Shown: positions 872 through 47,667, counted from the stretch's first letter. The stretch is 64,000 nt of DNA from Eledone cirrhosa (GCA_964016885.1 OZ024750.1:9238001-9302000); one strand, 5' to 3'. Notes: generated by a model from the sequence alone, not told the origin. Numbers and translations are program-made.

Positions 872-3178
872 GTGATTTTTATTTTTCAAATTCGATCTTT
901 AAAATAGTATTTTGAAATATTATTTAACAATCAATATTATTAAATAATATTTCAAAATATTAAAGTCAAAGTTAACCTCAAATCCCGCCGAGGTTAACTT
1001 TGCCTTTCATCCTTGCGGGGTCGATAAAACAAAGTACCAGTAATACACTGGGATAATTGCTGCCTTGTGCCAAAAGTAGAAACCATTATTTAATAATCAA
1101 TATGCTGAGTTCAAATCCCGCCGAGGTTAACTTTGTCTTTCATCCTTACGGGGTCGATAAAATAAAGTACCAGTAATACACTGGAGTAATTGCTGGCCTT
1201 GTGCCAAAAGTAGAAACCATTATTTAATAATCAATATGCTGAGTTCAAATCCCGCCGAGGTTAACTTTGTCTTTCATCCTTACGGGGTCGATAAAATAAA
1301 GTACCAGTAATACACTGAGATAATTGCTGCCTTGTGCCAAAAGTAGAAACCATTATTTAATAATCAATATGCTGAGTTCAAATCCCACCGAGGTTAACTT
1401 TGCCTTTCATCCTTGCGGGGGTCGATAAAATGAATTACCAGTAATGTACTGGGGTCGATTTAATTGACTTTCCTCGCTCCCAAAATGTTTGGCCTTGTGT
1501 CTAAATCAGAAACCAATATTTATTACTTTTATATTTTCTTTTATTGAACAGAATGGTTGACACCAGAGATAAAAGCCTGGTTATAGGACTTTCGTCATTT
1601 TTGAGTTCTTTATTGGGTAAGTTAATATGAATTTCTTTACCATTTCCTAAAGATCCATCGTAAATGTTATTTCTGATTAAATATATGTATAAATACTTTC
1701 GGGTTTCAAAAATAATAGAGGAGAGGGTGGGGTAAGCGTGGGGGGGGGGGGGGGCATTTGCTTAAATTCTTATAAGCGGTGACGTGAGGGGTCCGTAGTC
1801 CGTAACTGTACGTTTGTAAATATGGGATTTCTTATAATGTTCTTTTTTTTTTTTTCATATATAATGTTTTTTAATGTAAAATAAAATTCTTATTAGATTC
1901 TCCAGCTGCTGTATCGATATGAATCACTTACAATAAAATTTCGCCGGAGATAGATTAACAAAATTTAATGGGTGGAGGGGGATAAAAGCGGTGGAGGGTT
2001 AGAAAAAAATCTGAAAAATTAATAAGCGGGGGTGGGGTCGTGACGATTATTCAAGACCTGAGAGTCCATGGATAATTCCATTTTTATGTCAACTGTTTTG
2101 TCAACCGCATGTTATTCTTATAACATGCGGTTCAATTGTTACATATACTTCGATGTCTTTCATTCCATAACTTAATGTAAGAGAAAGCATTCAGTCCCCA
2201 CTGGCTAGCCGCAGGTGTGAGCTTCGCGAGATGGAATGGCTCTTCCAGCGCATCTCCCTTACTATCCTCCGGGGAAACGCCTTCTCCATTCTGTCCGGGG
2301 CTGTGGGGAGGCCAGCACGTAGGACCCCATTTGTTCACCATATAGAGAGATAAGGAGGGCGAGAGAGATGGAGGTGATGACAGTGGGAGTTCGGCTCTTC
2401 CGTGTTCCGACCTGGTGTGCACCGCCAGTTGTCCGTAGGGAGATAGTGGTTTGTACTTAGCGAAGGTTTTTAAAACCTTGTGTTTGTGATTCCTGTACGT
2501 TTTATTATGTTGTGGGATTAACTTTTCCTTTCATCCTTACGGAGTCGATAAAATAAAGTACCAGTAATACACTGGGATAATTGCTGGCCTTGTGCTAAAA
2601 GTAGAAACAATTATTATATGTTGACTTCATCTACAATGTGTTTTAATTATAAAGAATAGTCTTCTGCCACTGCCTGACCATAAATGCATCACTATACAGC
2701 TAAATATATATATATATATATATATGGTAAGTTATATTTAAATTGTTGGGTTACAACCAGTAAATATTTATAACTGATATAAAAGCACTCGACAAGTATT
2801 TGGAGTATATTTACGATATTAAATAAATGGAAACTATATTTATAAAACCATATTTATTTCATTATATATATTTCAGGGATATCATATTAACAATATGCTA
2901 TGCCTTCCTCAGACAAAATACAATATAGACAGTTTTATAGATAAATAGATTTGACATACCGTTCAACATCGACTTGTATTTGAAAAGTTGATTTGGCAAA
3001 TCAACTTTTCAAATACAAGTCGATGTTGAACGGTATGTCAAATCTATTTATCTATAAAACTGTCTATATTGTATTTTGTCTGAGGAAGGCATAGCATATT
3101 GTTAATATGATATCCCTGAAATATATATAATGAAATAAATATGGTTTTATAAATATAGTTTCCATTTATTTAATATCG

Positions 3179-3210
<32 letters not shown>

Positions 3211-4574
3211 GAGAGGTTATATTTAATTTGTTGGGATTCAACAAGCTTAAACATTTTTATAACTGATATAAAGCACTCAACAGATTAGTGGAGTAAATAT
3301 ACAATATATTAAATGGAAACTATATTTATAAAACCATATTTATTTTATTATACATATTTCAAGGGCCACCAAGGCAAATTATGGTGCGCTTTCATCAGAT
3401 AAAATACAATACAGATTAGTTTTATAAATAAATATTGACATACCCTGAAAAAAGACAACCTTAACGGTTGGAGCTTCCTGGAAGCTCCAACCGTTAAGGT
3501 TGTCTTTTATAAATATAGTTTCCATTTGTTAATATATTGTATATATATATATATATATATTCTTACTGATTAGAAGCAAGAAATTGTTGCCCCACTTTAA
3601 ATAGACTCTAAAGAGGAATCTGTTTTTATCAACTCTACTTCGTGTGTCATTTGTCATTTTCGTAAATATCAATTGTAATCTATCTGTATATCCTAAGTTT
3701 CGAACAAACGAAAATCATTTATATAAAAGGATAAACAGAAGAAAAAAAATTAATAGTAAAATGAACGGATATATTCACAAGTACAGTCAGTCACAATTTG
3801 ACACAAGGAAAACTACCAATCTCTCTCTCTATCTATCTATCTATCTATCTGACCTGTGGGGCTATGTAGAACGACTATTGTCGCGGGTGGGACCAATCCA
3901 GTTGACCACCGAGTCCATTGTCATGATCAAACCGCCACCCTCCTTCAAAAACGAAGGAGAGGCGGTTTTCCTTTGTGTGATAGCTATGGCGAAAGAGGTT
4001 GTATGGTGGACAAGTTAAAAGGGCTGAGGTCAGACACCTTTCTCTCCGGCCAACAACTGATTCTTTTTTTCAAATACCACTTTGGAAGAAGAATCAGGAT
4101 GGAGAGAGAGGTGCTGTACCCCAGCAAGTTTTATGAAAGGTGGGTGAAAGTGGCGAGAATGGCCCGAGTGAATGGGCCTTCTCTCTATATCAGCCTGTAG
4201 GTTGAGGAAAAGGAGGAGGAGAGGAAAGGAGTACAAGCTCTTCGTACTCCTGGAGATGAGGGTTGCACATTTTTTTTCGGGGGTATGTGTTACCCATATA
4301 AACTGTCTCCCTCTATTGGGGAAAATCGACTAACTTTTTAAATTGCATTTGTGATAACATTTTACACGTTTTTATTGTATGTAAACTTCCCCCTTTGTAT
4401 TTGTCCCCTTCTTTTGTGCCCCTGTGGCTAATAAAGAAATATATCTATCTATCTATATATATATATCTCACTCTCTCTTTCTTTCTTTCTCTCTCCTACT
4501 CTCTCTCTCTCTCTCTTTCTTTCTCTCTCCTACTCTCTCTCTCTCTTTCTCTCTCTTTTTCTCTCTCTTTTTTT

Positions 4575-4605
<31 letters not shown>

Positions 4606-5043
4606 CACTCTCTCTCTCTCTCTCGTTCATTACCTGAGGTTTTCGGGATCCTCAGGTGGGACGACGAAGGCGAGCCAATTGGTTAGGACACTTACGCAGT
4701 GACAAAGATATAGAAGTCACATGACATGGCAATAAATTTCCCCAAATGTCTTTACCATATTTCTTCTTTTCTAGGTTGGACGTTCGGCCCTATAATCTTT
4801 GGAAAGATGATTGATACAACGTGTTTAATTTGGTCTTCTTCATCAACGACATTAAAGGGAGGCTCGTGTGTCTTTTATGACACCCGTCGAATGAGAAACA
4901 TGAATTTCTTAGTCAGTGTAGGCATGGGCATTTTTTGTTGCATCTTAATGATAATTGCTATATTTACATATAATAAGAAAGAAAAGAAGAAGAAACATCA
5001 AGTGGTAAACACTGTATACCAAAAGACTACTATTCCAAAATGA
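711..5043 (+). CDS. SLCO: SLCO/OATP organic anion transporter paralog 1, 3' part only (exons 711-871, 1552-1616, 4775-5043); upstream exons lie outside the window
   Basis: Three AG/GT-bounded exons splice in frame: MYTDCSCLNVGSTVRSGYCDNNCGQK...FGTMKIVPCSIAFIR / MVDTRDKSLVIGLSSFLSSLLG / WTFGPIIFGKMIDTTCLIWSS...GSCVFYD...stop. This matches the OATP post-Kazal region and TM10-12 (GPxIFGxxIDxxCLxW...C..YD). Exon phases, and the 65-bp exon size, are the same as in paralog 2. Confidence 0.92.
970..1516 (+). mobile_element. Tandem array of four 5'-truncated copies of the main tRNA-derived SINE (period about 134 bp)
   Basis: Repeated GTTCAAATCCCGCCGAGGTTAACTTTG.CTTTCATCCTT.CGGGGTCGATAAAA...GTACCAG...GTAGAAAC. 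Confidence 0.85.
1552..1616 (+). CDS. SLCO: SLCO paralog 1 penultimate exon
   Basis: aacag|AATGGTTGAC...TTATTGG|gtaag; 65 bp, RDKSLVIG motif; homologous to 23986-24050. Confidence 0.88.
2201..2490 (+). mobile_element. CRE-clade non-LTR retrotransposon 3' fragment
   Basis: Translates LASRRCELREMEWLFQRISLTILRGNAFSIL, the QRxSxxIxRGNA C-terminal motif of CRE restriction-like endonuclease elements. Confidence 0.72.
2851..2925 (-). ncRNA. Type I hammerhead ribozyme motif (mirror arm)
   Basis: Reverse complement of 3067-3141. Confidence 0.76.
3067..3141 (+). ncRNA. Type I hammerhead ribozyme motif
   Basis: UAUUgUAUUUUGU-CUGAGGA-AGGc...hairpin...cCCU-GAAA-UAUAUA-UA/AUGAAAUAAAUA; predicted cleavage after 3129. 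Confidence 0.78.
3211..3541. mobile_element. Related fold-back element with an internally deleted right arm (central palindrome about 3450-3508)
   Basis: Homologous to 2727-3180 and 26196-26460; bounded by (TA)n. Confidence 0.7.
3337..3411 (-). ncRNA. Type I hammerhead ribozyme motif
   Basis: UAUUUUAU-CUGAUGA-AAGcGCACCA...UGGUGgCcCUU-GAAA-UAUGUA-UA/AUAAAAUA. Confidence 0.78.
3851..4439 (+). mobile_element. L1/Tx1-clade LINE 3' fragment (ORF2 C-terminus and 3' UTR with AATAAA) within (TATC)n
   Basis: Frameshifted DLWGYVERLL...AMAKEVVWWT / LFFKYHFGRRIRMERE...FYERW resembles the Tx1/L1 ORF2 end; 3' UTR tail repeated at 20990-21038. Confidence 0.6.
4775..5043 (+). CDS. SLCO: SLCO paralog 1 last coding exon (TM11-12, C-terminus)
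   Basis: ttctag|GTTGGACG...; GPIIFGKMIDTTCLIW; TGA at 5041-5043. Confidence 0.92.
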
Positions 5044-5058
5044 AACCAGAGACTAATA

Positions 5059-5091
<33 letters not shown>

Positions 5092-5092
<1 letters not shown>

Positions 5093-5391
5093 TATATGAA
5101 GTATTACCGTAGGAAGGGTAAAGAAAAAGAGAGTGCTCTATGTATGCTACAGAGCTATTTAATTATGTAATAAACAACATACGACAATTATTCTATTTAC
5201 CAAAGGTTTCACAAAGACAGACGAGCTCAACAGAAACGTCTGAAATCAGTCATAAAAATTTAATATATTATTAAAAATTTAAATTTAATAAATTTTTATT
5301 CTGATGAGCAACTTCAGACGTCTCTGTTGAGCTCGTCTGTCTTCGTGAAACCTTTGGTAAATGGAATAATTGTCTTATGTTGTTTATTACA

Positions 5392-5397
<6 letters not shown>
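5092..5397. mobile_element. Fold-back element (arms about 5160-5245 and 5314-5397, tail on the left) between (TA)n tracts, just 3' of the SLCO paralog 1 stop codon
   Basis: Imperfect inverted arms; hammerhead motif spanning the spacer and right arm. Confidence 0.7.
5294..5366 (+). ncRNA. Type I hammerhead ribozyme motif
   Basis: UUUUAUU-CUGAUGA-GC...CAGACG/CGUCUG...GU-GAAA-CC(UUU)GG-UA/AAUGGAA; GUA cleavage triplet after 5359; base of stem II is weak. Confidence 0.68.
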
Positions 5398-5439
<42 letters not shown>

Positions 5440-5590
5440 CATGTAGAAATGTGTGAATGTGACAGATCGATCCCTATTTACAAAACTGAAATATGTAAAC
5501 TTGGTTACCATTTCAGTCTCATCAATGGTTTGCCGGTGTTTCAGTTTATATATATACATATATATACATATATATACATACATATATATA

Positions 5591-5628
<38 letters not shown>

Positions 5629-5754
5629 GTATGTGTAAAGTCACTCTACATAGGAAATTTTTAAGTTTCCATATTTATTTATTTTGAATAAATTGTTTCT
5701 TATGAAACATAATTCCTTTTTTTTTTTTATGTATCGCGACTTTTCGGCCACTCT

Positions 5755-5843
5755 ATACATGTGTGCATGTGTGTATATATATGCATGTGTGTGTGTATAT
5801 ATATATACATATGTATGTATGTATATATATATATGTATGAATG

Positions 5844-5877
<34 letters not shown>

Positions 5878-5975
5878 CATATGTATGTATATATATATAT
5901 GTATGAATGTATATATATATATATGTGTGTGTGTGTGTGCATATGTATGTATGTATATATATATATGTATGAATG

Positions 5976-6013
<38 letters not shown>

Positions 6014-6049
6014 CATATGTATGTATGTATATATATATATGTATGAATG

Positions 6050-6083
<34 letters not shown>

Positions 6084-6119
6084 CATATGTATGTATGTAT
6101 ATATATATATGTATGAATG

Positions 6120-6155
<36 letters not shown>

Positions 6156-6189
6156 CATATGTATGTATGTATATATATATGTATGAATG

Positions 6190-6220
<31 letters not shown>

Positions 6221-6246
6221 GTGTGTGTGTGCATATATATGTGTGT
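5755..6246. repeat. Compound (TA)/(TG) microsatellite with a higher-order unit
   Basis: Repeated GCATATGTATGTATG(TA)nTGTATGAATG(TA)n(TG)n. Confidence 0.9.
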
Positions 6247-6585
6247 AACTTATAAGGATTACATAACTTTTTCTATATAAAAAATACTATATATTTAAAG
6301 TCCATGAAATCTGAATTCAGCGTCTATTTTTTTATTATTTTTATTAAAACAATGACTCAATCTTGATTTATATTGTTTCATACTATTTGTAGAATTGTCC
6401 AGATACTTAGCATTTTCTTTTAGGTATGAAGTTGTATAATTATGAGCCTGTTGATATGACATATATAAACTGTAAGGTTTTTGTAGGTTACGAATGTATT
6501 TTTATTTTCTAAATAAGCATACGAAATAGAGCGTGGATTATAAGCAATACTACAGTACATGGTGGTATATTATCTTATTAGAAAT

Positions 6586-7240
6586 ATAATTGTTTCTACT
6601 TTTGGCACAAGGCCAGCAATTACGCCAGTGCATTACTGGTATTTTATTTTATCGACCCCATAAGGATGAAAGTCAAAGTTAACCTCGGCGGAATTTGAAA
6701 TCAGAACGTAAAGGGCCATAACTCTATGCTACGAAGCATGGTGTCTGACGCTCTACTGATACTGCCAATCCACCGCCCTAGTTAGATGAAATAATAGAAA
6801 TATTTCACTCGTGTGGCTTTTCAATTTATTTCATTTAAAATTTTTTTTTTATTGTAAACAAGGAAGATTTGTTTTTTACGATTAACAGCTTCAGAGTCTC
6901 GTCTTAATCAACCAACAGGCTAGAAATAACAACCAAATCTCCCACGTCTCATGGCGTGAGCGACCCCTCTAACTCATGCAAGCATGGAAAAATAGACGTT
7001 AAATGATTATGATATATATACTGCTAATCATCTTATACTTCCTAAGATAATCGTTTCTACTTTTGGCACAAGGCCAGCAATTATCCCAGTGCATTACTGG
7101 TACTTTATTTTATCGACCCTGTAAGGATGAAAGGCAAAGTTAATACGGCGGGTTTTGAACTCCGACTGCAAAGAGCCATAACTCTATGCTGCAAAACATG
7201 GTGTCTGACGCTCTACCGATTCTGCTTATCCACCGCCCTA
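6586..7240 (-). mobile_element. Two full-length tRNA-derived SINE copies (6586-6780, 7048-7240)
   Basis: Head with A box TGGCAGTATCGGTAGAG-like and B box GTTCAAATCC-like sequence; conserved central GCCTTTCATCC...GGGGTCGATAAAATAAAGTACC domain; AT-rich tail. Confidence 0.85.
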
Positions 7241-7629
7241 GAAATATAATGAAACAGTCAATGATTCTGGTGAGAAACGAATGTCGAACGTTTGTAGTTT
7301 ATGGCGATCTCAGTAAATAGGGAAAGAACTTCTCTCTCTCCTCAAAATGTGTGTATGTATGTGTGTGTGGGTGGGTGTGTTTATCAACAATAGTAAATGA
7401 TAAATTTAAACTACCTAATCAAGGGAGATTATAAATGCCAATGAAGAAGATAAGTAAGGTAATTACACGGAACCAGTTGTAAGGGAAATAACCCAATATC
7501 GTATTTGTTATGACTTTTGAACATTCTGAAATTGGAGAGGAAGGCAAACATTGACATACGATGATTCATATCTGCTTCTTATACACGTGTGCACGGGTAC
7601 ACGGTCAATGCAGACAGAGAAACAAACAT

Positions 7630-7666
<37 letters not shown>

Positions 7667-7713
7667 AGTAGAAGGGATATTTAATTTGTTTAATTGTATA
7701 TATATATATATAT

Positions 7714-8104
7714 AACAAAGAAGGTGTGGTAAGATACCAGGTGGGGGTAGTAGAGTGTAATAGGAAAAGAGTCAGGACCCCGACGGCTGAGCTCTGGCCG
7801 TTTCGACAGCTAGATCCGAACAGTTCGGATCTAGCTGTCGAAACGGCCGGAGCTCAGCCGTCGGGGTCCTGACTCTTTTCCTATATATATATATATATAT
7901 ATATATATAACGAAGGAAATGTGGTAAGGAACCAGATGGACCATAACGCACCAGAGTACTCAATACTTAGGGTAGTAGAGTGGGTAATAGGAAAATGTTT
8001 AACCCCGACGGCAGAGCTCAAGCCGTTTCGACGGCTATTTCTGAGTTCAGAAATAGCCGTCGAAACGGCTTGAGCTCTGCCGTCGGGGTTAAACATTTTC
8101 CTAT
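7714..8104. mobile_element. Two tandem palindromic family A elements (palindromes 7760-7884 and 7987-8104) separated by (TA)n
   Basis: Homologous to 480-681; near-perfect arms. Confidence 0.78.
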
Positions 8105-8789
8105 ATATGTGTGTGTGTGTGTGTGTAAATCCTATATTAATATCTACACCCTACTTAAGTATGGTGTACTAAGTTGAATAATGCTATCAGTAGTCAGCCG
8201 GGAATTGAACTCACAACCTTAAGATCATGAGAAGAATACCCTAACCACAAAGCCATGCACCTTCACATTCTAATATTACTATAGCAACGCTATATTTATC
8301 ATACAGGATACAGAAAATATCCAGCATTGCCTGTCTAACTCGTATGATGCGCATGCGTCTGACGATATAATTATTGAGTCTTTTAGCGTTTCACCGTTTC
8401 GAGACTTTCAAAGTCCCATCTTCACAATAAGGGCATATTGGTGGCGAATTCTTTATGTGATTTGCAGTGGTTACAAAGAATCATGGACGTAATAGTAAAA
8501 TATTTGTTGATCGTGTGTGTTCCTACTTCTCTAGTAATAAAATATGATATAATTCTATCAATTATTTGTTATGAATTATAAAATTTCACTATTCTGCTGT
8601 CAATTTAAATGATGTATGTACAGAAATAAATCTAATATATTTGGAAATTTCAAAAATAATTATAGATGTTATTTAAATGTTGTATTCGCGGCAATGTAAC
8701 TGTACAGAGATGTGCTTCGTTCATTAATCTATTCATTCAAACTTTCATGTAAATAACAATATGCTTGTACGGTAGGCCAACTGTATCAG

Positions 8790-9660: not shown

Positions 9661-9667
9661 TTTTCCT

Positions 9668-9910
9668 CCTGGTGACACTTTTTCGATAAAGTGAGTAGCT
9701 CGGAGATTAGAGAGTCACTCAATTTAGAGCCTCTACTTCTCCGAATTGAGAGATCACAGCTCCAATACTACGAACATGTGCTTAGAATGTCTCAGGATAG
9801 AATCACAGGACAGATTTTACGGGCAAAAACTAAATGGCAGAAGATCCAAGGGTAGACCCTGAGCAAGATGGCTGGATAACATCCATGAGCTCGGCTGGTC
9901 TTGCTTGAGA
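9668..9910 (+). mobile_element. RTE-clade LINE 3' fragment (related 3' ends at about 36865-36975 - and 58430-58525 +)
   Basis: DKVSSSEIRESLNLEPLLLRIERSQLQYYEHVLRM...GRRSKGRP*ARWLDNI. Confidence 0.75.
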
Positions 9911-10562: not shown

Positions 10563-11845
10563 ACAGATCTATAAGGAGCTGAAATACGTTTCACTCTGTG
10601 TCTTGTAGAGACAGATCTATACGGAGCTGAAATGCGTTTCACTCTGTGTCTTGTAGAGACAGATCTATAAGGAGCTGAAATACGTTTCACTCTGTGTCTT
10701 GTAGAGACAGATCTATAAGGAGCTGAAATACGTTTCACTCTGTCTTGTAGAGACAGATCTATAAGGAGCTGAAATACGTTTCACTCTGTGTCTTGTAGAG
10801 ACGGATCTATACGGAGCTGAAATACGTTTCACTCTGTGTCTTGTAGAGACGGATCTATACGGAGCTGAAATGCGTTTCACTCTGTGTCTTGTAGAGACAG
10901 ATCTATAAGGAGCTGAAATACGTTTCACTCTGTGTCTTGTAGAGACAGATCTATAAGGAGCTGAAATACGTTTCACTCTGTGTCTTGTAGAGACAGATCT
11001 ATAAGGAGCTGAAATACGTTTCACTCTGTGTCTTGTAGAGACAGATCTATAAGGAGCTGAAATACGTTTCACTCTGTGTCTTGTAGAGACAGATCTATAA
11101 GGAGCTGAAATACGTTTCACTCTGTGTCTTGTAGAGACAGATCTATAAGGAGCTGAAATACGTTTCACTCTGTGTCTTGTAGAGACAGATCTATACGGAG
11201 CTGAAATACGTTTCACTCTGTGTCTTGTAGAGACAGATCTATAAGGAGCTGAAATACGTTTCACTCTGTGTCTTGTAGAGACAGATCTATAAGGAGCTGA
11301 AATACGTTTCACTCTGTGTCTTGTAGAGACAGATCTATAAGGAGCTGAAATACGTTTCACTCTGTGTCTTGTAGAGACAGATCTATAAGGAGCTGAAATA
11401 CGTTTCACTCTGTGTCTTGTAGAGACAGATCTATAAGGAGCTGAAATACGTTTCACTCTGTGTCTTGTAGAGACAGATCTATAAGGAGCTGAAATACGTT
11501 TCACTCTGTGTCTTGTAGAGACAGATCTATAAGGAGCTGAAATACGTTTCACTCTGTGTCTTGTAGAGACAGATCTATAAGGAGCTGAAATACGTTTCAC
11601 TCTGTGTCTTGTAGAGACAGATCTATAAGGAGCTGAAATACGTTTCACTCTGTGTCTTGTAGAGACAGATCTATAAGGAGCTGAAATACGTTTCACTCTG
11701 TGTCTTGTAGAGACAGATCTATAAGGAGCTGAAATACGTTTCACTCTGTGTCTTGTAGAGACAGATCTATACGGAGCTGAAATACGTTTCACTCTGTGTC
11801 TTGTAGAGACAGATCTATACGGAGCTGAAATACGTTTCACTCTGA
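10563..11845. repeat. 48-bp minisatellite, about 27 copies
   Basis: Unit ACAGATCTATAAGGAGCTGAAATACGTTTCACTCTGTGTCTTGTAGAG; one unit has a 2-bp deletion near 10740. Confidence 0.97.
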
Positions 11846-13685: not shown

Positions 13686-13744
13686 CACGCACACACACGC
13701 ACACATAGATACACACAGATACACACACAGATACACATAGATAT

Positions 13745-13775
<31 letters not shown>

Positions 13776-17054: not shown

Positions 17055-17306
17055 CAGAACATAGTAATCGTACAGAAGAAGCCCTTTACATGTGTATTGA
17101 GAAGACAGAAACCGTAATAAAAAAGGATACAGCTTCACCAACAAATTTCGGAGCCCTGTCAATCATCGCAATAGGAATGATTTTACAAGGAATGGGCAAA
17201 TCAGTTAGAACACCATTGATAACTATATATGTTGATAACAACGTGAAGAAAACAAAAACTGGGAAGTTTATGGGTAATTGAGTCTCTTTCTCTCTCTTTC
17301 TCTCTC

Positions 17307-17352
<46 letters not shown>

Positions 17353-17705
17353 TATAAATATTAATAAAATAGATGTTCTTTTGATCAATTACATTTTATT
17401 ATACATATTTCGGATGTACAACAGTACGTCCTCATCAGACAAAATATGAGATGTTAAATGATTAAGATTAATCAAGGTAGTGATTAACCTAAGAAAATTT
17501 AACATATATACCCTAATTATGAGAAAACGATGAGAACGTACTGTTGTACATCCGAAATATGTATAATAAAATGTAATTGATCAAAAGAACATCTATTTTA
17601 TTATTTATATTTTAATATTAACTCCGGAAAATTATTTTTCGTAGAGTGCTTCCAATCTACTGTAAAACTCATTCTTTGACATACTCATGGAATATTGTTT
17701 AACAC

Positions 17706-17759
<54 letters not shown>

Positions 17760-24919: not shown

Positions 24920-25928
24920 ATATAATCCATTTTCAGATAATCCAATTTACTAAATCCTAATTCATTCAATATCTATCTTTAGAGGGGTTGATAGCAAATA
25001 TTTCTGGTTGTCTGTATGTATTGGTATACTTTCATCTATGTACTCTCAGGTCTCAAATAATAGGAGGGGTTGGAATAAGTGGGGGGTCGGAAGTTATTTA
25101 CACACGATAGACAACAGAGGCCACGTGTTGTCCCTTTCCGACTAAAAACTTTCCTCCTCGGAAAACCCCCAGTTGATGGATACGAAATATAGGGATAATT
25201 AAATCACTTCCAAGGTAACTATCTCGTGTTATTATTTTTACACTCTTTCCTATGTTACTCTACACCCTATACGTCTCATTCTACATTTCATCTTACATCT
25301 CTCTCATTACCACCTGATTCTGTTACCCAAAGATTTACCCATCTGCAATGTTGAGGCTTCCAAAATGACCAATTTTATTATTCCACAATGCTTCAAGCAA
25401 ACCGCAACACTCTCTCTTTTATATTTATATATATATATATATATATGTGTGTGTTACAGTATCGTAAAAGAGGACGGAAAGAAGAGGTATAAAGAGGTGC
25501 GATACAGAGTATTACATGCCAAAAGCGGGTGCGTAAGTGCTCGGCCAATGGGGCTCTGCGTCAGACGAGCCCCATTGGGCGAAACATGTGTAAGAGCTTT
25601 ATAAAGATATGTTTTAACGGCTTGTAACTCTTTCATTAATTATTTTGCCTATATATATATATATAATGTCGTCTACTCGTCTGGCAAACGAGAGGTGTGG
25701 TTTTGACTCCCATGTGTGCTGATATATGTTCAAACTTTAGGAGGGTCATGTTGCCAATAAATACACACGCAGCTGTTATAGTCCTATAGAATCCATTTCT
25801 ATATTAAAGATGATGTTTACACTCCAACAATGTATTGAGTACCTTATTAACTGCGGTTACCCCCGTTTTAACTAGAGACGAGACTCTCTCTCGTGTACAT
25901 ACATATACATACATATACATACATACAT

Positions 25929-26104: not shown

Positions 26105-26270
26105 AGATGATGCATGACATACCCTGACAAATTCTTTGATTTATTCATTGAACCTTGTTTAACCTTTAAATATATATATATATATATATATATATCCGCG
26201 AGCTTCCAACAGAAATGGTCGCGTTCTTTAAGGGTATGTCAATATTTATTTATAAAACTGATCTATATTA

Positions 26271-26335
26271 TATTTTATCTGATGAAAGCGCACCATAATT
26301 TGACTTGGTGTCCTTGAAATATGTATAATGAAATA
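26271..26335 (+). ncRNA. Type I hammerhead ribozyme motif within element 26196-26460
   Basis: UAUUUUAU-CUGAUGA-AAGcGCACCA...UGGUGUcCUU-GAAA-UAUGUA-UA/AUGAAAUA. Confidence 0.8.
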
Positions 26336-27510
26336 AATATCGTTTTATAAATAGTTTCCATTTGTTAATATATCGTATTTTTACTCCAATAATTTGAGTG
26401 CTTTATATCAGTTATATTTAATTTGTTGGGATACAACAAGCAAATATTTTTATAACTTCTACATAATATATATATATATATATATATAATTCCCATGCAT
26501 ATATATTAATTCCCTTGTATATATATATATATATATATATATATGCAAGGGAATTAATTTTCTATTGATAGCTTTTAAGTTATCTCCCCTAATAAAAAGT
26601 TTTAAGAAAGTAAGAATAGATTGCATTTGTAAAAGTGGAATATTTTATATTTTCCGCCATTGTATATCTTAAACAATGGCGGTTCCTTGTAAGATTGGTA
26701 TCAGCCAGGCCCCATGACTTCCGCTAATGTTATTTCTTTTAAATATCCATGTGCTTGCAAGAAGACAGATACACACTTTCTATCTGTTTACAATGTCTAA
26801 GTAGATGAAGAGAGGTGCACTCCAGTATATGATTATTACTATGTTATCAATACCAGAAAGATGAAAGCCAAATTTGATCTCGTCAGAATTTGTACATACA
26901 GAGAACATAAAGAATTAAACCAACTTTCCCCCTTTTTTTATGAGGCAGTGTAACACACCTCCCTTGATACTTGAGGGAGTTAATGGAAATATATATTTTA
27001 TCATGACGAAGCATTTCACATCAAACTTAGTCTTTTGTTAAATAAAGGACAGTCGTGATTTGAACACTTTGTGCATTCTCTCTAGTTACTAAAAAATGAT
27101 TCTATTCTAAAAAAAAAAAAACGTTGTTCTTCCATACATTTCATCCATAATATTTATAAACATCTTGATTTAAATTAACGTAAATACTCTTGCAGTACTT
27201 CTCTCCCTTTTGTACTTAAAGTCGGTCTTTTGGTTAAATTATCTCCCTTGTATCTGTTAGATTAGAACTGTTATAATTACCTCCCTTGGCTTCGTAAAAT
27301 GTTTAAGGATACATACGCACACATAGGAGGGTTGTCTGAAACGTTTATAGACATACTCTTATGGAATGTGACCAAATGAGCTTTGTTTTTCAATATAGCC
27401 CCCAATGTATGTATGTGTGTCTGTCTGTTTATACATTCTTACCCACATATATATGAGCCTGCCTGTGTGTGTCTGTGAATCTGTTTATTTATACATTTTT
27501 ACCTCCATAA

Positions 27511-28420: not shown

Positions 28421-29207
28421 CAAGCCCACCTATACACTGGAAGGCAAACAAAGACACATATACAACTCACATATACACAGAAGAGGTTGCTCCACATGCT
28501 AGATATAGCAACCAAATCCTTTGAAATCACTATTAATCAGAGAAAGAAATATTCCATAACATCAGACCCCAAATATTCATATTTTGTGCACATTGACCTG
28601 GGAAGGTGCACCCAGTTTGGTCTTGGGGTGGTACCAGTAATGCTTCTGTTTCCCTTTTTAAAATCACAAATATTTAATTGGGATCTTTGTATTTGCAATC
28701 ATAAGGCTGCAAGTTTTTATGTACGTAAACTTAACAAACGAAGGATTGGGCACATCCTCCAAGTGTGTTAAGGGCATAACAACCTCCCTAGTGTTGCTGA
28801 TCGATAAGATAAAGACACCCAGTACATGGTGTAAAGTGGTTGGTGATAGTAAAGACATCCTGCCATTGAAAGATTATCAAACAAAAGGTTGTGAGGACCC
28901 TCAAGTGGTGTCAAAGACATGACAGCTTCTCTAGTGCTGGTGACCTAAATGATAAACGCACCTAGTACAGCTAGCCATAGAAAGCTGGCCAAACAAAGGG
29001 TTGGGATGCCCCTTCAGTTTTGTCAAAGACATGACAACTTCTCTAATGCTGGCGCCACAATAAAATGCACTTGGTAGAATGTGGAGCTGTATATGAGATG
29101 CAAAACCCTGACCTACTTCAGTACTGACTCGGTCTATAAAGACCTGTCAAACCTTTGCTAACAGAGAAAGTGGATATTAAACAATGATGATGATAGATAT
29201 ATATATT

Positions 29208-29407
29208 GGAAAAGAGTCAGGACCCCCGATGGCTGAGCTCTGGCAATTTCGACAGCCAGAGCCGAACTGTTTGGATCTAGCTGTCGAAACGGCTGGAGCT
29301 CAGCTGTCGGGGTACTGACTCTTTTCCTTTTACCCACTCTCCTACCCTAAGTATTGAGTACTCTGGTGCGTTATGGCCCACCTGGTTCCTTAACACACTT
29401 TATTTGT
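29208..29407. mobile_element. Palindromic family A element (palindrome 29208-29327, tail on the right)
   Basis: Homologous to 7714-7884, opposite orientation; bounded by (TA)n. Confidence 0.72.
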
Positions 29408-37953: not shown

Positions 37954-40900
37954 TGTCCATTCCCCCATCCCTCTGTCCATTCGTCCATCCCTCTGTCCAT
38001 TCGTCCATTCCTCTGTCCATTCCTCCATCCCTCCGTCCATTCCTCCATCCCTCTGTCCATTCGTCCATTCCTCTGTCCATTCGTCCATTCCTCTGTCCAT
38101 TCGTCCATCCCTCCGTCCATTCGTCCATCCCTCCGTCCATTCGTCCATCCCTCCGTCCATTCGTCCATCCCTCTGTCCATTCCTCCATCCCTCTGTCCAT
38201 TCGTCCATCCCTCCGTCCATTCGTCCATCCCTCTGTCCATTCGTCCATCCCTCCGTCCATTCCTCCATCCCTCCGTCCATTCCTCTGTCCATTCCTCCAT
38301 CCCTCTGTCCATTCGTCCATCCATTCGTCCATCCCTCCGTCCATTCCTCCATCCCTCCGTCCATTCCTCTGTCCATTCGTCCATCCCTCCGTCCATTCCT
38401 CCATCCCTCCGTCCATTCCTCTGTCCATTCGTCCATCCCTCTGTCCATTCCTCCATCCCTCCGTCCCTTCGTCCGTTCCTCTGTCCATTCGTCCATCCCT
38501 CCGTCCATTCGTCCATCCCTCCGTCCATTCGTCCATCCCTCCGTCCATTCGTCCATCCCTCCGTCCATTCCTCCATCCCTCCGTCCATTCCTCCATCCCT
38601 CCGTCCATTCCTCCATCCCTCCGTCCCTTCGTCCGTTCCTCTGTCCATTCGTCCATTCCTCTGTCCATTCGTCCATCCCTCCGTCCATTCCTCCATCCCT
38701 CCGTCCCTTCGTCCATCCCTCCGTCCATTCCTCCATCCCTCCGTCCCTTCGTCCGTTCCTCTGTCCATTCGTCCATTCCTCTGTCCATTCGTCCATCCCT
38801 CCGTCCATTCGTCCATCCCTCCGTCCATTCGTCCATCCCTCCGTCCATTCCTCCATCCCTCCGTCCCTTCGTCCGTTCCTCTGTCCATTCGTCCATTCCT
38901 CTGTCCATTCGTCCATTCCTCTGTCCATTCCTCCATCCCTCCGTCCCTTCGTCCGTTCCTCTGTCCATTCGTCCATTCCTCCGTCCATTCGTCCATCCCT
39001 CCGTCCATTCGTCCATCCCTCCGTCCATTCCTCCATCCCTCCGTCCCTTCGTCCGTTCCTCTGTCCATTCGTCCATTCCTCTGTCCATTCGTCCATTCCT
39101 CTGTCCATTCCTCCATCCCTCCGTCCCTTCGTCCGTTCCTCTGTCCATTCGTCCATTCCTCTGTCCATTCCTCCATCCCTCCGTCCATTCCTCCATCCCT
39201 CCGTCCATTCGTCCATCCCTCCATCCATTCGTCCGTCCCTCCGTCCCTTCCTCCGTCCCTTCGTCCATTCCTCCGTCCATTCCTCCATCCCTCTGTCCAT
39301 TCCTCCATCCCTCCGTCCATTCCTCCATCCCTCCGTCCATTCCTCCATCCCTCCGTCCATTCGTCCATCCCTCCGTCCATTCCTCCATCCCTCCGTCCAT
39401 TCCTCCATCCCTCCGTCCATTCCTCCATCCCTCTGTCCATTCCTCCATCCCTTCGTCCATTCCTCCGTCCATTCCTCCATCCCTCCGTCCATTCCTCCAT
39501 CCCTCCGTCCATTCCTCCATCCCTCTGTCCATTCCTCCATCCCTCCGTCCATTCCTCCATCCCTCTGTCCATTCGTCCATTCCTCCGTCCATTCCTCCAT
39601 CCCTCTGTCCATTCCTCCATCCCTCCGTCCATTCCTCCATCCCTCTGTCCATTCGTCCATTCCTCCGTCCATTCCTCCATCCCTCTGTCCATTCGTCCAT
39701 CCCTCCGTCCATTCCTCCATCCCTCTGTCCATTCCTCCATCCCTCCGTCCATTCCTCCATCCCTCCGTCCATTCCTCCATCCCTCTGTCCATTCGTCCAT
39801 TCCTCCGTCCATTCCTCCATCCCTCTGTCCATTCCTCCATCCCTCCGTCCATTCCTCCATCCCTCTGTCCATTCGTCCATCCCTCCGCCCCTTCGTCCAT
39901 TCCTCTGTCCATTCCTCCATCCCTCTGTCCATTCGTCCATTCCTCCGTCCATTCCTCCATCCCTCTGTCCATTCCTCCATCCCTCCGTCCATTCCTCCAT
40001 CCCTCTGTCCATTCGTCCATCCCTCCGTCCCTTCGTCCATCCCTCCGTCCATTCCTCCATCCCTCTGTCCATTCGTCCATTCCTCCGTCCATTCCTCCAT
40101 CCCTCTGTCCATTCCTCCATCCCTCCGTCCATTCGTCCATCCCTCTGTCCATTCGTCCATCCCTCCGTCCATTCCTCCATCCCTCTGTCCATTCCTCCAT
40201 CCCTCCGTCCATTCGTCCATCCCTCCGTCCATTCGTCCATCCCTCTGTCCATTCCTCCATCCCTCTGTCCATTCCTCCATCCCTCCGTCCATTCGTCCAT
40301 CCCTCCGTCCATTCGTCCATCCCTCCGTCCATTCGTCCATCCCTCCGTCCATTCCTCCATCCCTCCGTCCATTCGTCCATCCCTCCGTCCATTCCTCCAT
40401 CCCTCCGTCCATTCGTCCATCCCTCCGTCCATTCGTCCATCCCTCCGTCCATTCCTCCATCCCTCCGTCCATTCGTCCATCCCTCCGTCCATTCGTCCAT
40501 CCCTCCGTCCATTCGTCCATCCCTCCGTCCATTCGTCCATCCCTCCGTCCATTCGTCCATCCCTCCGTCCATTCGTCCATCCCTCCGTCCATTCCTCCAT
40601 CCCTCCGTCCATTCGTCCATCCCTCCGTCCATTCCTCCATCCCTCCGTCCATTCGTCCATCCCTCCGTCCATTCGTCCATCCCTCCGTCCATTCGTCCAT
40701 CCCTCCGTCCATTCGTCCATCCCTCCGTCCATTCCTCCATCCCTCCGTCCATTCGTCCATCCCTCCGTCCATTCGTCCATCCCTCCGTCCATTCGTCCAT
40801 CCCTCCGTCCATTCGTCCATCCCTCCGTCCATTCGTCCATCCCTCCGTCCATTCGTCCATCCCTCCGTCCATTCCTCCATCCCTCCGTCCATTCGTCCAT

Positions 40901-41415
40901 CCCTCCGTCCATTCGTCCATCCCTCCGTCCATTCGTCCATCCCTCCGTCCATTCCTCCATCCCTCCGTCCATTCCTCCATCCCTCCGTCCATTCGTCCAT
41001 CCCTCCGTCCATTCCTCCATCCCTCCGTCCATTCCTCCATCCCTCCGTCCATTCGTCCATCCCTCCGTCCATTCCTCCATCCCTCCGTCCATTCGTCCAT
41101 CCCTCCGTCCATTCGTCCATCCCTCCGTCCATTCGTCCATCCCTCCGTCCATTCGTCCATCCCTCCGTCCATTCGTCCATCCCTCCGTCCATTCGTCCAT
41201 CCCTCCGTCCATTCCTCCATCCCTCCGTCCATTCCTCCATCCCTCTGTCCATTCCTCCATCCCTCCGTCCATTCGTCCATCCCTCCGTCCATTCGTCCAT
41301 CCCTCTGTCCATTCCTCCATCCCTCTGTCCATTCCTCCATTCCTCCGTCCATTCGTCCATCCCTCTGTCCATTCCTCCATCCCTCCGTCCATTCCTCCGT
41401 CCATTTGTCCATCCC
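37954..41415. repeat. About 3.5-kb pyrimidine-rich 20-bp satellite
   Basis: Unit CCATCCCTC(C/T)GTCCATTC(G/C)T with variants; explains the four ORFs over 1100 aa. Confidence 0.97.
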
Positions 41416-41889
41416 TCTCTCTCCATCACACTCTCTTTATATAGAGAGGAGGAATACCAAGTGAGAGATATGTTAATAAAGAGATAAAATAAAGGGAATG
41501 GCATATGTTTTCAAGGTGACAGAAAGAGGTAGATAGAAAGTTATGATGTTGCCCTCATCTATATATATATAGAGAGAGGGGGGGGGGGGTGCCCAGCAAA
41601 AGAGAAAAGGAACGTCATTTGTTTAGAGAGTGTGTGTGTGTGTGTGTGTGTGTGTGATAGAAAGAGTCAGCAGACATCACCCTCATCTGTAGTAATAATT
41701 GTTTCTACTTATGGCACAAGGCCAGCAATTACCCAGTGCATTACTGGTACTTTATTTTATCGACCCCCCCCCCCCCCCCCCCCGTAAGGATGAAAGGCAA
41801 AGTTGACCTCAGTGGGATTAATAATGATTGATTTTTAAATAATACACAACATACATGAAATAGCACTGCAAGGCACTGTATATAAAGAC

Positions 41890-42116
41890 ACCATCATCAC
41901 CATCAGCACCATCATTACCATCACCATCATTACCACCATTACCACCATCATCACCATCATCACCACCATTACCATCACCACCATTACCATCATCATCGCC
42001 ATCATCGCCATCGTCATCGCCATAGTCATCGCCATCATCACCACCATCATCATCATCACCACCACCATTATCACCACCATTATCACCACCATCATCACTA
42101 TCATCATCATCATCAT
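41890..42116. repeat. (CAT/CAC)n trinucleotide repeat (similar tract at 51962-52253)
   Basis: Direct inspection. Confidence 0.9.
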
Positions 42117-42152
42117 TTAATGTCCCACTTTCCCTGCTAACAAGGGTTGGAT

Positions 42153-42189
<37 letters not shown>

Positions 42190-42321
42190 GGAGGTGAGTT
42201 TTATTGTAGTACAATAAAGCAATGCAGATATCGGATAAGAAGCACTCTACAGTTTGTGGGACTGGAGTATGCATAATATAAGATCAAAAGATGATTTTTT
42301 AGCCTTCATATCATGTTCTCC

Positions 42322-42392
42322 TGTTTTATCTGATGAAAACACAAATATTATTATTTGATGATGTTTGTTTTTGAAATGCGCATAATAAAATA
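42322..42392 (+). ncRNA. Type I hammerhead ribozyme motif within fold-back element 42187-42430
   Basis: UGUUUUAU-CUGAUGA-AAAcACAAAUAUUAUUA(uu)UGAUGAUGUUUGUuUUU-GAAA-UGCGCA-UA/AUAAAAUA; palindromic stem III AUGCGCAU. Confidence 0.8.
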
Positions 42393-45300
42393 TATTGAAC
42401 TCCTTTAACCATCTTTTGATCTTATATTATATATATATATATATATATATAAATATAAAAAAAAAATACGAAACAAAACGGCTGATGATATATTTTTTCT
42501 AACCTTAGTAGTAGACCAACCCTTTGAGGGATTGGGGAGGGGGGAAATTGATTATATTGACCCAGTACTTATATTTACCCCAGAAGGATGAATGGTAAAG
42601 TTGACCCTGGCATGATCTGAGAATATCTGTTGCCAACAATGGCCCCGTCACCGACGGGTTGAAGTGATGTTGTATCCCAGAAGACGGCTAGCTGAGAGTT
42701 TTCTGCTTTCTTTCACCTTGACATACCTCAAAGAAGTGTTCCACAACAAAGGGAGATAAGGGGTGAACCTGTACGAGTCGTATTCCTCTACTTATATTAT
42801 AAAGAACCACAAGGCCAATCATTTTGTGGGGAGGGGAAAGTCGATCAGATCGACCCCAGTGCATTACTGTTACTTTATTTTATTGACCGTGTAAGGATGA
42901 AAGGCAAAGTTTAACCTTGACGGGATTTGAACTCAGAACGTAAAGGGATGTAACTCTATGCCACTAAGCATGTTTTCCGACACTCTGCCAATCCACTGCC
43001 CTAATAATAATGATAATAATAATAATAATAACTCTGTGAGAAATACAAACAATATGAGCATGCTTTAACAGGACTTTATATGACAAAGATTAAATTTAAC
43101 ATCACTAAAATGGAAATAAGACTTCACAAAGAAACAAAAAAAATATAATCTTTTAACAAAAATCAACATTCTTCTTAATATTCTTAAAGAAGACATAGTC
43201 TCCTTTGACAAGATATCTTAATGAGTCATTCATTCAATATATATAAGAAAAATGAAATTGTCTTGAGGGATTTAAAAAGGAACAGGAAGAACAGTAAGTA
43301 CAAAGAGTTGACTGTGTATACAGTACATCTTAATATTTAAACATTTACATATAGATTTTAATGTTTATACTATTGTATGTATAATTTAACATTATTACAG
43401 AACATACATAAAAACCTGTGACACAAGACAAAAATGGAAGAAACTAATAATATGAGAAAAACAAACTAGATAAATATTGTTACATTTCGAGAGGGTCATG
43501 TTATCCTAATATTGACAAAAATAGTAAAACACAATCAGTTTGGTTTGGTTTTCACTTCAGTATATTTTGAGATATTCTTATAAATTATTTAGCTGGCAAT
43601 CAATATTTATCATTGATTGACTAACAGTTAAATATAAATATAATTTCTCAAATTCTTTCATCACTCATTTGTCTGTGACATCTTCAGTGATTATCCAAAC
43701 CAGACAAAATAAGTCCCAAACACACTGCAATAGAAAAGCTGAAAAAGAAAATAACCAAGCCATCATGTTCATGATCATCGTCATCTTTATACTTGCATTC
43801 CATGCTGACATGGGTTGGATGGGTTGCAGCAGTATGAAACCAGATGTATTGGACCAACATCACCTCACTCATCATCATCATAGACTTTAAGAATTCATGG
43901 ATGCCTTCAGCAATTTCTCCAAGTAATTCTGTCCTCCAGCATCTTCACTCTTTATTCAACCAATTTCACTCAGAAGGATTGTTGTTGTTACAGCTCACAC
44001 CTATGCAGGTTTAGCTGGCCTCTTCCAAGGTATACCTCGTTGGAGGTGTCTTGGGTGATTTTAATGATAGGGACCCCAGTCCCTATCATCTCATTTCTAC
44101 AGCTGAGTAAACTGGAGCAACATGAAATAGTGTCTTGTTCAAGGAAACAACACATCACTCGGTCCAAGAATTGAACTCGCAATCTTTTGATTGCAAGCCC
44201 AATGCTCTAACCACTAAGCCATGCGCCTTCATTCAGAAGGACACTTGTCTGATAAACCAAGCAGTGGAATTGAACCTGAAACTTGCTGATTGTGGAGGTA
44301 ACTTCTTAACCATTTATCTATACCTGGTAAATTATATATCACATATAGAAGGAGACTGCTTCTCAATGTAGCTAGTACAGTATTCTTGGCATGTATCGAA
44401 CTAGAGTATACCTGATAAATTATACATTACATAAAAAAAGAGGGAAAGGAGAAGGTTGCTTCTTTATGTAACAAGTTCAGTATTCTTGGCATGTATTGAA
44501 CAAGAATATTATTTTAGGGGTTAGCAATGGCTGAGCAGTGGAATGAATTCTTTATCGAGGAAACGCTTGCTTGAGTGATTTTACATAAAACTATGCAACG
44601 TGGTGGCTTTGTGCCAATTTAAAAAATGAACAATGATGTAAATAATGAGAGATGAAAAAAAAATGTCTGTTGGCATTGGTTAACTACAACAACATCAATA
44701 GTAACAACAAGAGCAGCAATAACAGTAGTAGTAGTAGGAACATCCATGGCAGACTGTGTTATTAAGTTGTTTGTTCATCATTAAAAGCTAATGACAATCC
44801 AGTTTAATAGCTGTTTCATAAATATTATTAAAACAATTTCTTTGTTATCCATGGTTAAACTAAAAACCTATTGAGCATGTTATTAAGTGATCTTAAAGAT
44901 ATAATTTAATTGTTAATGAGAATAATATTTATGGTGTATTGGTGAATCGATGGTAGCATTGTTTACTACAAAGACCCTTTAATTTTGAAGCTTTTACATC
45001 ATAAAAACCTTTAAATTATTGTAAAAGTTACTCCTCCTTGCCTCATTAATTACTATGTTTATGAAAAATAAAGAAAAAGTTGGGGAAAGGCTTTTATTAA
45101 TAATTAAGTGTCAGCTTATATATGAGGAATTATAAAGTAGAACTCAATATAAAAATAATATCATGAAACAGTCGTAAAAGTTATACTTTAGAACAATTCA
45201 GAATAGTTTCCATTCAAGTTTAAAATGAGGTTTTGGTCCTCTATGTCTCTTTCTGACTATTAAAAGGTGAATTTCCATAAATATTGAAGAAGGGTTAGAA

Positions 45301-45809
45301 TAATATGAAAGTATTATATTATATCATATGTGAATTTGAGAAGTTTGCTTTGTTTTGCTTTGCAGCCATATATGGTTTAAGGTTCTAACCTGCTGAACTA
45401 CATATACTTATATATATATATATATATACATGTATAAATACTTGCATATATATATATATATATTAGCACAGATTTAAGTTAATTAAATAATAAAATCTGG
45501 GCATACATCTTATCAACTACCATTTATTTAGTATGTAAAATCAACTAGGTATATATATATAATCATCATCATCGTCATTTTATATATTTGGGGATGGTCA
45601 TGTTGCCAGTATTGCCAATTAAAAACACACATGCACACCATATGATTTTCACTTTAATCTTTATTGTTCGTTATTCATTCGTCAAAATTCTTTTGTCACA
45701 TATTCTGTGACCTCCACAATGACTATTTTTTGTCTTTTGTATTTTCTCCTTTTTCTTGTTTTAAACTTCTTCTCCATTGTGCCTTTTGCTTTCAAATCGA
45801 ATACATAAA

Positions 45810-45853
<44 letters not shown>

Positions 45854-46565
45854 CAGACAGACAGAGTTTACCTAACAGAAAAGGTAGATTTTTTATGTAA
45901 GAGAGCAGTTCTCTCTCAAAACAGAGGTGACAAAGAAATGCAGTAGGTGGGGGTAGCTGTACTGTAAAAGACTCTTCCACTCCATGGAAAATCAGATGTA
46001 AAAAAATGAGAATGATGATAATATATATATATGGAAGTGTATATATATATATATGGGCATATATGGGTGTAAGAATATATCCATATCTGTGTGTAAAAGT
46101 GTGCATACTCATATCTGTGTGTATGTATATGCAGATTTGCAAACTTGCAAATGTATATGTGTGTGCACATGTGTATGTGTGCATGCTTCTGTTTTTGTAT
46201 ATATATATATATATATATATCATCATCATCATCATCGTTAAACGACGATGATGATGATGATTTTATATATATATATTTGTGTGTGTATATATGTCTGTGT
46301 GTTTCACACAAGAAGAAGAATGTGGTGATGATGATGGTGGTGGTGTTGGTGTCAGGAGAAAAGAAGATAAGATCAATGAAATCAATTAATAAATATTGAT
46401 TGGCTAAGAATATTTTGCTGTGTAGGCCAGTTTTAGAGAAAAAGGTCATCCCCTACTTAAACTCACTCACATAAACATAAATATAGATTTATACACCAAA
46501 CACCCACATACACACAACAATATAATATAATTTTATGAATGTGTGTGTGTATATATATATATATA

Positions 46566-46956
46566 TTGGAAAATGTGTGAAATCCTTGGTACAGTTAGGT
46601 GCATTTGAAAAAAGGAAAAGAATAACTTTACTTGTAGTTCTAAACAATTTAATTTTATAATATTATAATTTTACATTTTGGTTTTGTAGGTCTAGTAAGT
46701 TCTTTGTTAACTTTGGTAGGGAGATTTTTTTAAATTTCCTGGTTAACTTTCCTGTAGAACTTTCTCACATTTGACAATTACCACCGACAAATGCGAGAAA
46801 GTTCTCCAGGAAAGTCAACCAGGAATCTTTTAAAAAATCTCCCCACCGAAGTTAACAAAGAACTTACTAGACCTACAAAACCAAATTGTAAAATTATGAT
46901 ATTATAAAATTAAATGGTTTAAAACTACAAATGAAGTCATTCTTTTCCTTATTTTT

Positions 46957-46961
<5 letters not shown>
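46566..46961. repeat. Fold-back element family C (about 360-bp imperfect inverted repeat plus short tail) in (TA)n
   Basis: 46603-46774 pairs with about 46785-46961; no hammerhead core recognised. Confidence 0.7.
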
Positions 46962-46995
<34 letters not shown>

Positions 46996-47667
46996 TCACC
47001 ATCATCATTTGTGTTATCATATGGCATGCTGGAACTAAACCAAAACTGAAGTCTGTGAATTTCTTTAAATTGTCCAGTATATGCAGCCCGACTAGATCAC
47101 TGGAAGGAGTGTTTGAAGATTCTGCTCCCCAGTTAATTCACAGTACTCTGTTATAGTTAGACATTTCTAAAGCTACCCATCGCCATAGTGTGTTAGGAAT
47201 TTCTGGACATGCCATAAACGTTTTATAAACATTTCCTGTACAACTTTTCCTAAGTTCAAAATTAGAACTTTATGAAGCCAAAATATTGATTTGACTTATT
47301 TTTATCTCCATTCTGGTTTTTTAAGTGATTTTTAATGAGTTCTTCATCTTAATTATCATCAATGATTTTATGTTCACTTTTCCATGCTAGCAAGGGTTTG
47401 ATAAGACATTGTACACACACATAGACACTCTCTCTCTCTGCCTCTCACACGCACATACTTGCATACATACATATATCTACCCATCTATAGATACATATGT
47501 ACATACACACACACGCAAATATATATATGTATGTGTGTAGCGTGGAAAATGGACTTTAAACGATGATGATGATATGTGTGTGTGTGATGGGTTCAATCGG
47601 GAAGTAACCACAGTAAGTAAAGTACTCTACATTAGTAGAGTGTAAAAATCAAATTTTACATAGAAAT

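Follow-up and report, generated by a model that had tools for sequence, protein, structure and literature searches.

Penelope-like elements (PLEs) are the closest relatives of telomerase. The elements, their tails and the internal initiation of their reverse transcription are already known, and one in vitro study bears on how start sites are chosen and how the tail and the head-to-head palindromes arise. For the Hydra clade, the available portions of Craig et al. (2021; PMC8557442) describe one open reading frame (ORF) for a reverse transcriptase (RT) with a C-terminal GIY-YIG endonuclease, carrying the motifs RW[KR], DKT, CxCx5C, CxxC and CxH listed for the clade, as well as a hammerhead in the pseudo-long terminal repeat (pLTR), (TA)n as the target, an inverted 5′-truncated copy and a tail at one end. 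The elements described here, from a 64,000-nucleotide (nt) stretch of Eledone cirrhosa DNA (GCA_964016885.1 OZ024750.1:9238001-9302000; hereafter the window) and from elsewhere in the same 3.0-Gb genome, resemble that description in all these features. They depart from it in that those portions describe no hairpin, in that the tails here are ~60-95 nt including a hairpin rather than 30-40 nt, and in that the unit of the family we call A spans ~4.2 kb between hammerheads, compared with <3 kb, which is a tendency of the clade rather than a strict rule; metagenome relatives are shorter.

Other systems also bear comparison. In L1 twin priming, two target ends prime on one RNA to create an inversion; the second site is chosen opportunistically and no sequence is duplicated between the arms, whereas in the fold-backs a conserved signal appears to fix both sites, and there is overlap between the arms. 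RT-docking structures are also found in telomerase RNA and in hepadnavirus epsilon, where a short template register is placed by a bulged stem or boundary element. The likeness we suggest to these RNAs is functional: the best fold matches of the RT are telomerases, and neither repeat addition nor protein priming is implied. The nearest experimental precedent is PAc, the Poseidon protein of Anolis carolinensis, which according to the available portions of Frangieh et al. (2024; PMC11167929) cleaves the two strands of an AT-rich target and extends both, starts reverse transcription internally at two sites bracketing the tail, and is a predicted dimer. PAc initiates in an AC-rich stem loop inside the ORF, whereas the putative sites described here are in the 5′ leader, one for each DNA end, and each is followed on its 3′ side by a conserved hairpin of its own.

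We consider it likely that the fold-backs are 5′-truncated Hydra-clade insertions in (TA)n and that two conserved hairpins, H1 and H2, which lie a few bases 3′ of two fixed insertion ends, dock the RT on the element RNA. Each of the eight H1 hairpins named in a preliminary description of the window was found at its position and on its strand. A strict motif scan of the window gives 11 matches, compared with 0.73 +/- 1.04 in 200 block-wise dinucleotide shuffles (maximum 6), and adds three sites to those named: two real copies, which begin at 29336 and 61867, and a match at 25535-25570(-) that is probably due to chance. Genome-wide, a refined pattern has 150,989 matches versus 854 for a reversed control, and these two comparisons rule out a chance origin of the motif. 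In 970 kb of unselected genome, a microsatellite follows 25-110 nt downstream of 92 of 105 strict matches, versus 28% of random positions.

Six of the eight named sites belong to fold-backs bounded by (TA)n, and those at 26383 and 47620 are single-armed. In all six fold-backs only one arm has the tail, and the other arm stops a little before the hairpin, as had been claimed, with its last non-TA base 7-9 nt 5′ of it; the offsets of the two additional copies fall in the same range. The name 'short arm' used previously is misleading, since on the 5′ side it is frequently the tail-less arm that extends further. For a larger sample, ends were called by anchoring on TA in place of noisy BLAST-based calling. 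Of 219 non-redundant hairpins with a microsatellite after them, 123 were single-armed or lacked a TA boundary. The other 96 were scorable as fold-backs flanked by TA at either end (5 from the window, 12 from unselected DNA and 79 from targeted loci). The short end falls 1-14 nt before the hairpin in 85 of the 96, with modes at -7 to -9, where ~8 would be expected if ends were uniform. Four of the remaining rows, representing three insertions, are two-tailed, and seven end elsewhere. The short-arm end points are thus non-random with respect to the motif.

A search blind to the motif, covering the 970 kb and the window, recovered 39 fold-backs among 1005 inter-TA segments, 30 of them with an overhang of at least 35 nt. 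A hairpin is located 4-9 nt past the short end in 18 of these 30 (one doubtful), variants were recognized by eye in two, and 10 have none; therefore the end rule is confined to a subset of families, those that bear the motif. Hairpin variants of the form GUUC/GAAC (compensatory) and GCUC/GAGC without the RCU flank occur at the expected distance from short ends in L274:1447-2000 and L235:6943-9641. Other TA-associated families in the window (46567-46959, 48520-48861 and 61661-61745) have tails of ~36-67 nt without the hairpin; these are probably from other PLE clades and offer a natural negative control.

The consensus of the hairpin is UA, 4-6 nt, RCUC, a covarying upper stem, a U-N bulge, GAGY and RCUN. 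Covariation, which had been proposed as a check on the motif, is evident in the upper stem, which pairs only across the 2-nt 3′ bulge (mean 2.92 pairs versus 0.60 when shuffled, for 40 genome cluster representatives that are not all independent). Further material came from 78 Hydra-like metagenome loci with protein identities of 32-39%, of which 27 were set aside because their 5′ flanks were short or truncated. The hairpin lies at most 260 nt before the ORF in 42 of the remaining 51, and two hairpins are present in 31, compared with 4 for ORF interiors, 7 for the reverse strand and 0.7 for shuffles. Sixty-six distinct strict hairpins were collected with no condition placed on the stem; pairing spans the 2-nt bulge in 64 and occurs without it in none. 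The bulge begins with a U in all 66, and the upper stem with a C-G pair in 38 and a U-A pair in 25. A TA begins at -8 to -6 in 58 of 68 hairpins, versus 28 when shuffled. Among 42 metagenome loci whose 3′ ends were checked, 13 were informative, and nine of these end 0-6 nt before H1 or H2 (three judged by eye). Published Hydra consensuses from sea cucumber, coral and copepod (supplement of PMC8557442) also carry the motif or a variant by eye: a twin form is visible at the 5′ end of Hydra-1_Ajap, a single form in Hydra-2_Ajap and Hydra-2_Amil, and variants in Hydra-1_Crog, Hydra-1_Amil and Hydra-1_Obim. The 8-mer GAGY-RCUY of all the hairpins comes close to being self-complementary, and pairing of two hairpins or two RNAs through it is conceivable.

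The motif is also present in parental elements. Walking 5′ from a copy of the family found at 3271 (family A) leads to the end of an ORF and then to full-length copies of Hydra type, whose layout is hammerhead, short end, H1, tail, long end, H2, ATG and RT/GIY-YIG ORF. The family A protein is a 742-aa single ORF, for which Pfam yields no RT match and a PDB sequence search was likewise uninformative. In its predicted structure (predicted local distance difference test score 87), the RT part finds its best fold matches in telomerase RTs (Foldseek E 5e-9; VIA Z 14.3), and residues 618-720 match the catalytic domain of I-TevI (Z 9.7, root-mean-square deviation 2.2, 88 aligned), consistent with a C-terminal GIY-YIG endonuclease. 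The protein has every Hydra-clade motif, with RW[KR] in the RWR form; in 60 aligned proteins RW[KR] is found in 57, DK[TS] in 60, CxCx5C in 54, CxxC..E in 60 and C.H in 58. Families B, C, D and E likewise lead into Hydra-type ORFs; identity to family A is ~40-60% for B, D and E, and C is less closely related. The parents have Hydra-type ORFs, and therefore the short fold-backs are 5′-truncated insertions of autonomous families. By these motifs and by-eye comparison with published Hydra proteins, the elements are assigned to the Hydra-clade, endonuclease-bearing (EN+) PLEs. They insert into (TA)n, and the layouts of L162-L181 together with the end-pair counts reveal pLTRs from partial tandems, the inverted truncated copy and the tail at one end. 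The families that had been called dissimilar all belong, where tested, to this one clade. The common membership, the conserved bulge and the second hairpin marking the tailed end are what the earlier reading lacked.

Upstream of H1, the pLTRs carry putative hammerheads, recognized as CTGANGA...GAAA cores with a stem II. The preliminary description had placed a ribozyme upstream of the window hairpins. Core sequences are indeed there, but at 5131, 17621 and 42240 the core is intact solely on the tail-less arm, and the site at 7954 retains its 3′ half alone. Just upstream of the family A hammerhead is a splice-donor-like word, G/GTATGT, at 3430-3445(-), 26236-26250(+) and 2955-2965(-) of the window. 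Penelope has a 5′ UTR intron at the matching position. The word CACTATCC is common to the leaders of families A and E (L164:3855-3865), and several tail-less arms stop exactly there (joints in L004, L008, L018 and L022); it is possibly the 5′ end of the transcript.

The second hairpin, H2, begins 5-9 nt past the last family-specific base of the tail (the long end), in copies where the tail reads through into the Hydra ORF. It was found in five of the six families tested: in full-length family A copies recovered by protein search; in family E at 24 of 25 loci; in family D at 7 of 14, most of the others being unrelated sequence; in family C at 5 of 13; and in family B at 3 of 25 (read-through copies L183, L188 and L195), as well as in copy L284 from unselected DNA. 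L189 is an adjacent family C element and not a family B read-through. The targeted H2 patterns demanded the first four letters, so that only the rest of the hairpin and the ORF that follows count as a test; family A was reached through its protein and L284 came from unselected DNA, and therefore neither H2 is owed to the pattern. Long ends never include H2, which fits a signal located 3′ of the start of target-primed reverse transcription (TPRT).

A further helix is predicted between the 22 nt after H1 and the 24 nt after H2. In 31 non-redundant families, this clamp has a mean calculated energy of -11.3 kcal/mol with the family's own partner, -5.7 with crossed and -6.0 with shuffled partners, and the best of 5000 permutations reaches -8.05. 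The own partner ranks best in 13 of the 31, and the predicted register is kept although the clamp sequences vary. Such a helix is predicted to close the tail, the long start site and H2 into one RNA domain adjoining H1.

The two ends are combined by a simple rule. In unselected DNA, 40 of 42 fold-backs pair one long with one short end, one is long+long, none is short+short and one is unclassified (p = 1.3e-11 versus independent choice). Targeted loci agree, with 89 of 110 pairs long+short, one short+short, one long+long, and most others having read-through or unclassified ends. Among 20 loci with long ORFs, eight show both outer ends; all eight are complementary, four in each direction. This rule bears on the idea that the hairpins direct RNA cleavage or 3′-end formation just upstream, with ordinary TPRT starting from the two resulting RNA 3′ ends. 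R2- and L1-type TPRT does start at RNA 3′ ends, and the distance from the hairpin is fixed. However, a cut at the short site removes the long site, such that the 40 of 42 would require sorted pairs of different RNAs, and the Anolis protein is reported, in the available portions of PMC11167929, to start internally regardless of the RNA 3′ end. We regard this explanation as very improbable.

The reach of the arms is asymmetric as well. In 97 scored pairs (five were unscored), the tail-less arm extends at least 10 nt further 5′ in 31 and the tailed arm in 8, and many joints overlap by 0-2 nt. Both arms of an insertion share their subfamily and private variants, with 5.0 differences within and 16.2 between insertions of family A, which points to one source for both arms. 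These data can be set against a single priming event followed by snap-back or self-priming, wherein the cDNA folds back to copy itself and the hairpin halts the second arm before its end is linked to the TA repeat. Self-priming has been proposed for head-to-head PLE palindromes (PMC3846280, in the portion available), perfect palindromic centres do occur (2806-3186 is near perfect, at 99% identity), and the common private variants fit. Yet in 31 of 97 pairs versus 8 in the reverse sense, the tail-less arm has sequence missing from the tailed arm, as in the window element 42187-42427; four of the eight long insertions carry the ORF on the tail-less arm; and an H2 at equal distance past the long end is left unexplained. 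The arm asymmetry means that snap-back fails unless deletions are common, and we judge it improbable.

Transcription and re-insertion of a fold-back as a unit was also considered and is not favoured, since joints differ between copies. Family B is a special case, where arms are joined within the long hammerhead stem II (window 8040-8050 and L032-L061) and ~25 targeted copies share one joint; this route may apply to that subfamily. The shared joint may reflect a stalling hotspot or a replicating mini-element.

Our preferred reading, two-ended priming from one RNA, would proceed as follows. The endonuclease would cut both strands within (TA)n, and two RT units, probably a dimer, would sit on H1 and H2 of one RNA. 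Each DNA end would then pair with the UA ~6 nt upstream of its hairpin and prime copying toward the 5′ end. The cDNA begun at H1 would run ahead as the tail-less arm, and that begun at H2 would form the tailed arm, holding H1 but never H2. The two would stop independently, and repair would link them head to head. A tandem or circular RNA, as proposed for PLE hammerheads (PMC4209133, in the portion available), would be needed for arms that carry the ORF and have a long end.

The preliminary description took the hairpin to be a cis signal for the RT or the endonuclease, or to define the end of the second arm. That end does lie near the hairpin, and docking of the RT is, by inference, the favoured way in which the signal is read. 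In the competing scheme, the GIY-YIG endonuclease reads the hairpins in single-stranded DNA and cuts a longer cDNA at the TA 6-7 nt upstream of H1 or H2, thus resolving both ends. As far as the available portions of each source go, Craig et al. (PMC8557442) ascribe the tail to endonuclease resolution, the Drosophila Penelope endonuclease requires the tail for cleavage (as reported in PMC11167929), and the Ssn GIY-YIG nucleases of bacteria cleave single-stranded DNA close to hairpin repeats (PMC11893778). The conserved TA and the non-significant test of G-U pairing given below are also compatible with this scheme. Nevertheless, it needs a further priming event 3′ of H2, a hairpin that long ends never keep; the greater 5′ reach of the tail-less arm does not follow from it; and in the sole in vitro PLE system the ends are RT start sites (PMC11167929, in the portion available). 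On balance, we think resolution by the endonuclease rather unlikely.

Several points weigh against two-ended priming. Its mechanistic steps are all deduced from genomic footprints, and the conserved TA suits an endonuclease cut site as well as primer pairing. H2 is not formed in the lowest-energy fold of family A, requires a ~65-nt loop in family C, and was not found in family H, where 14 loci yielded no read-through copy or second hairpin. For neither region is the whole fold significantly more stable than in shuffles (z -1.9 and -0.9), and G-U versus A-C pairs stand at 9:4 (p = 0.27), which does not distinguish sense RNA from DNA as the folded strand. Four of the 13 informative metagenome 3′ ends are not before a hairpin. 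Real long+long and short+short insertions exist, although they are rare (two were inspected, L101:5824-6106 and L149:3100-3390). The arm asymmetry might be imitated by deletions in the centre of the palindrome, and the shared variants by conversion of one arm to the other. Finally, the Anolis RNA stretch has no such motif by eye, and therefore that precedent uses another signal.

We also raise, as a tentative possibility, a broader reading in which a conserved RNA domain of two bulged hairpins and the clamp helix serves to load a dimer of the telomerase-related RT. With the dimer in place, the two ends of one double-strand cut would both prime on the same RNA, 6 nt being the fixed distance. 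This would be programmed two-ended TPRT, directed by a portable cis signal conserved across several animal phyla. The hairpin motif is undescribed in the literature searched, which included the available portions of PMC8557442, PMC7229834, PMC6431247, PMC13282606 and bioRxiv 10.64898/2026.07.22.740005, Repbase reports and subscription papers being outside its scope. The analysis offers a precise candidate signal, with a sequence, a bulge, a distance rule and a clamp helix in dozens of families, and opens the mechanism to tests that need short RNAs and a single purified protein. If true, it would account for the tail, the one-short-one-long rule and ~150,000 insertions in the E. cirrhosa genome. 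The motif also provides a simple marker for Hydra-clade elements, and possibly for non-coding RNAs that they mobilise.

Table 1. Hairpins and fold-back elements of the window. Offsets (nt) give the end of the tail-less arm relative to the hairpin.
Feature	Position	Strand	Details
H1, family B fold-back, one mismatch in 3′ flank	530-557	-	end near 680
H1, family A fold-back	2783-2806	-	element 2726-3178; tail-less end 3178; offset -8; hammerhead cores 2871-2912(-), 3080-3121(+)
H1, family A fold-back	3271-3294	-	element 3211-3539; end of other arm 3539; offset -8; hammerhead core 3358-3398(-)
H1, G-C form, family C fold-back	5131-5155	-	element 5090-5395; offset -7; intact hammerhead core on other arm, 5301-5350(+)
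H1, family B fold-back	7954-7981	-	element 7910-8101; offset -9; arm joint within hammerhead stem II
H1, family D fold-back	17621-17651	+	element 17348-17709; offset -7; hammerhead core 17408-17438(-)
H1, single-armed family A copy	26383-26403	+	copy 26196-26465; hammerhead core 26279-26319
H1, family B fold-back, extra	29336-29363	+	element 29207-29407; offset -8; strict scan
H1, family E fold-back	42240-42268	-	element 42187-42427; offset -8; hammerhead 42330-42376(+) on tail-less arm, not on tailed arm
H1, bulge-less variant, single-armed copy	47620-47641	-	tail end 47587 in (CA)n; hammerhead core 47690-47712(-)
H1, family B fold-back, extra	61867-61894	-	element 61823-62012; offset -9; strict scan
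Fold-back, further family	1-398		tail-less end near 398; tailed arm and long-loop hairpin just before window position 1

In an Rfam scan of the window, the best 150 of 250 matches are all below the gathering score, include no hammerhead family, and are nearly all to microRNA families on palindromes or microsatellites. Four minisatellites are present, with repeat units of 133 bp (978-1452), 48 bp (10563-11844), 20 bp (37955-41402) and 79 bp (59786-60572). Beside the family D element, between two TA runs, positions 17060-17273 hold a stretch that resembles a coding exon and has a splice donor.

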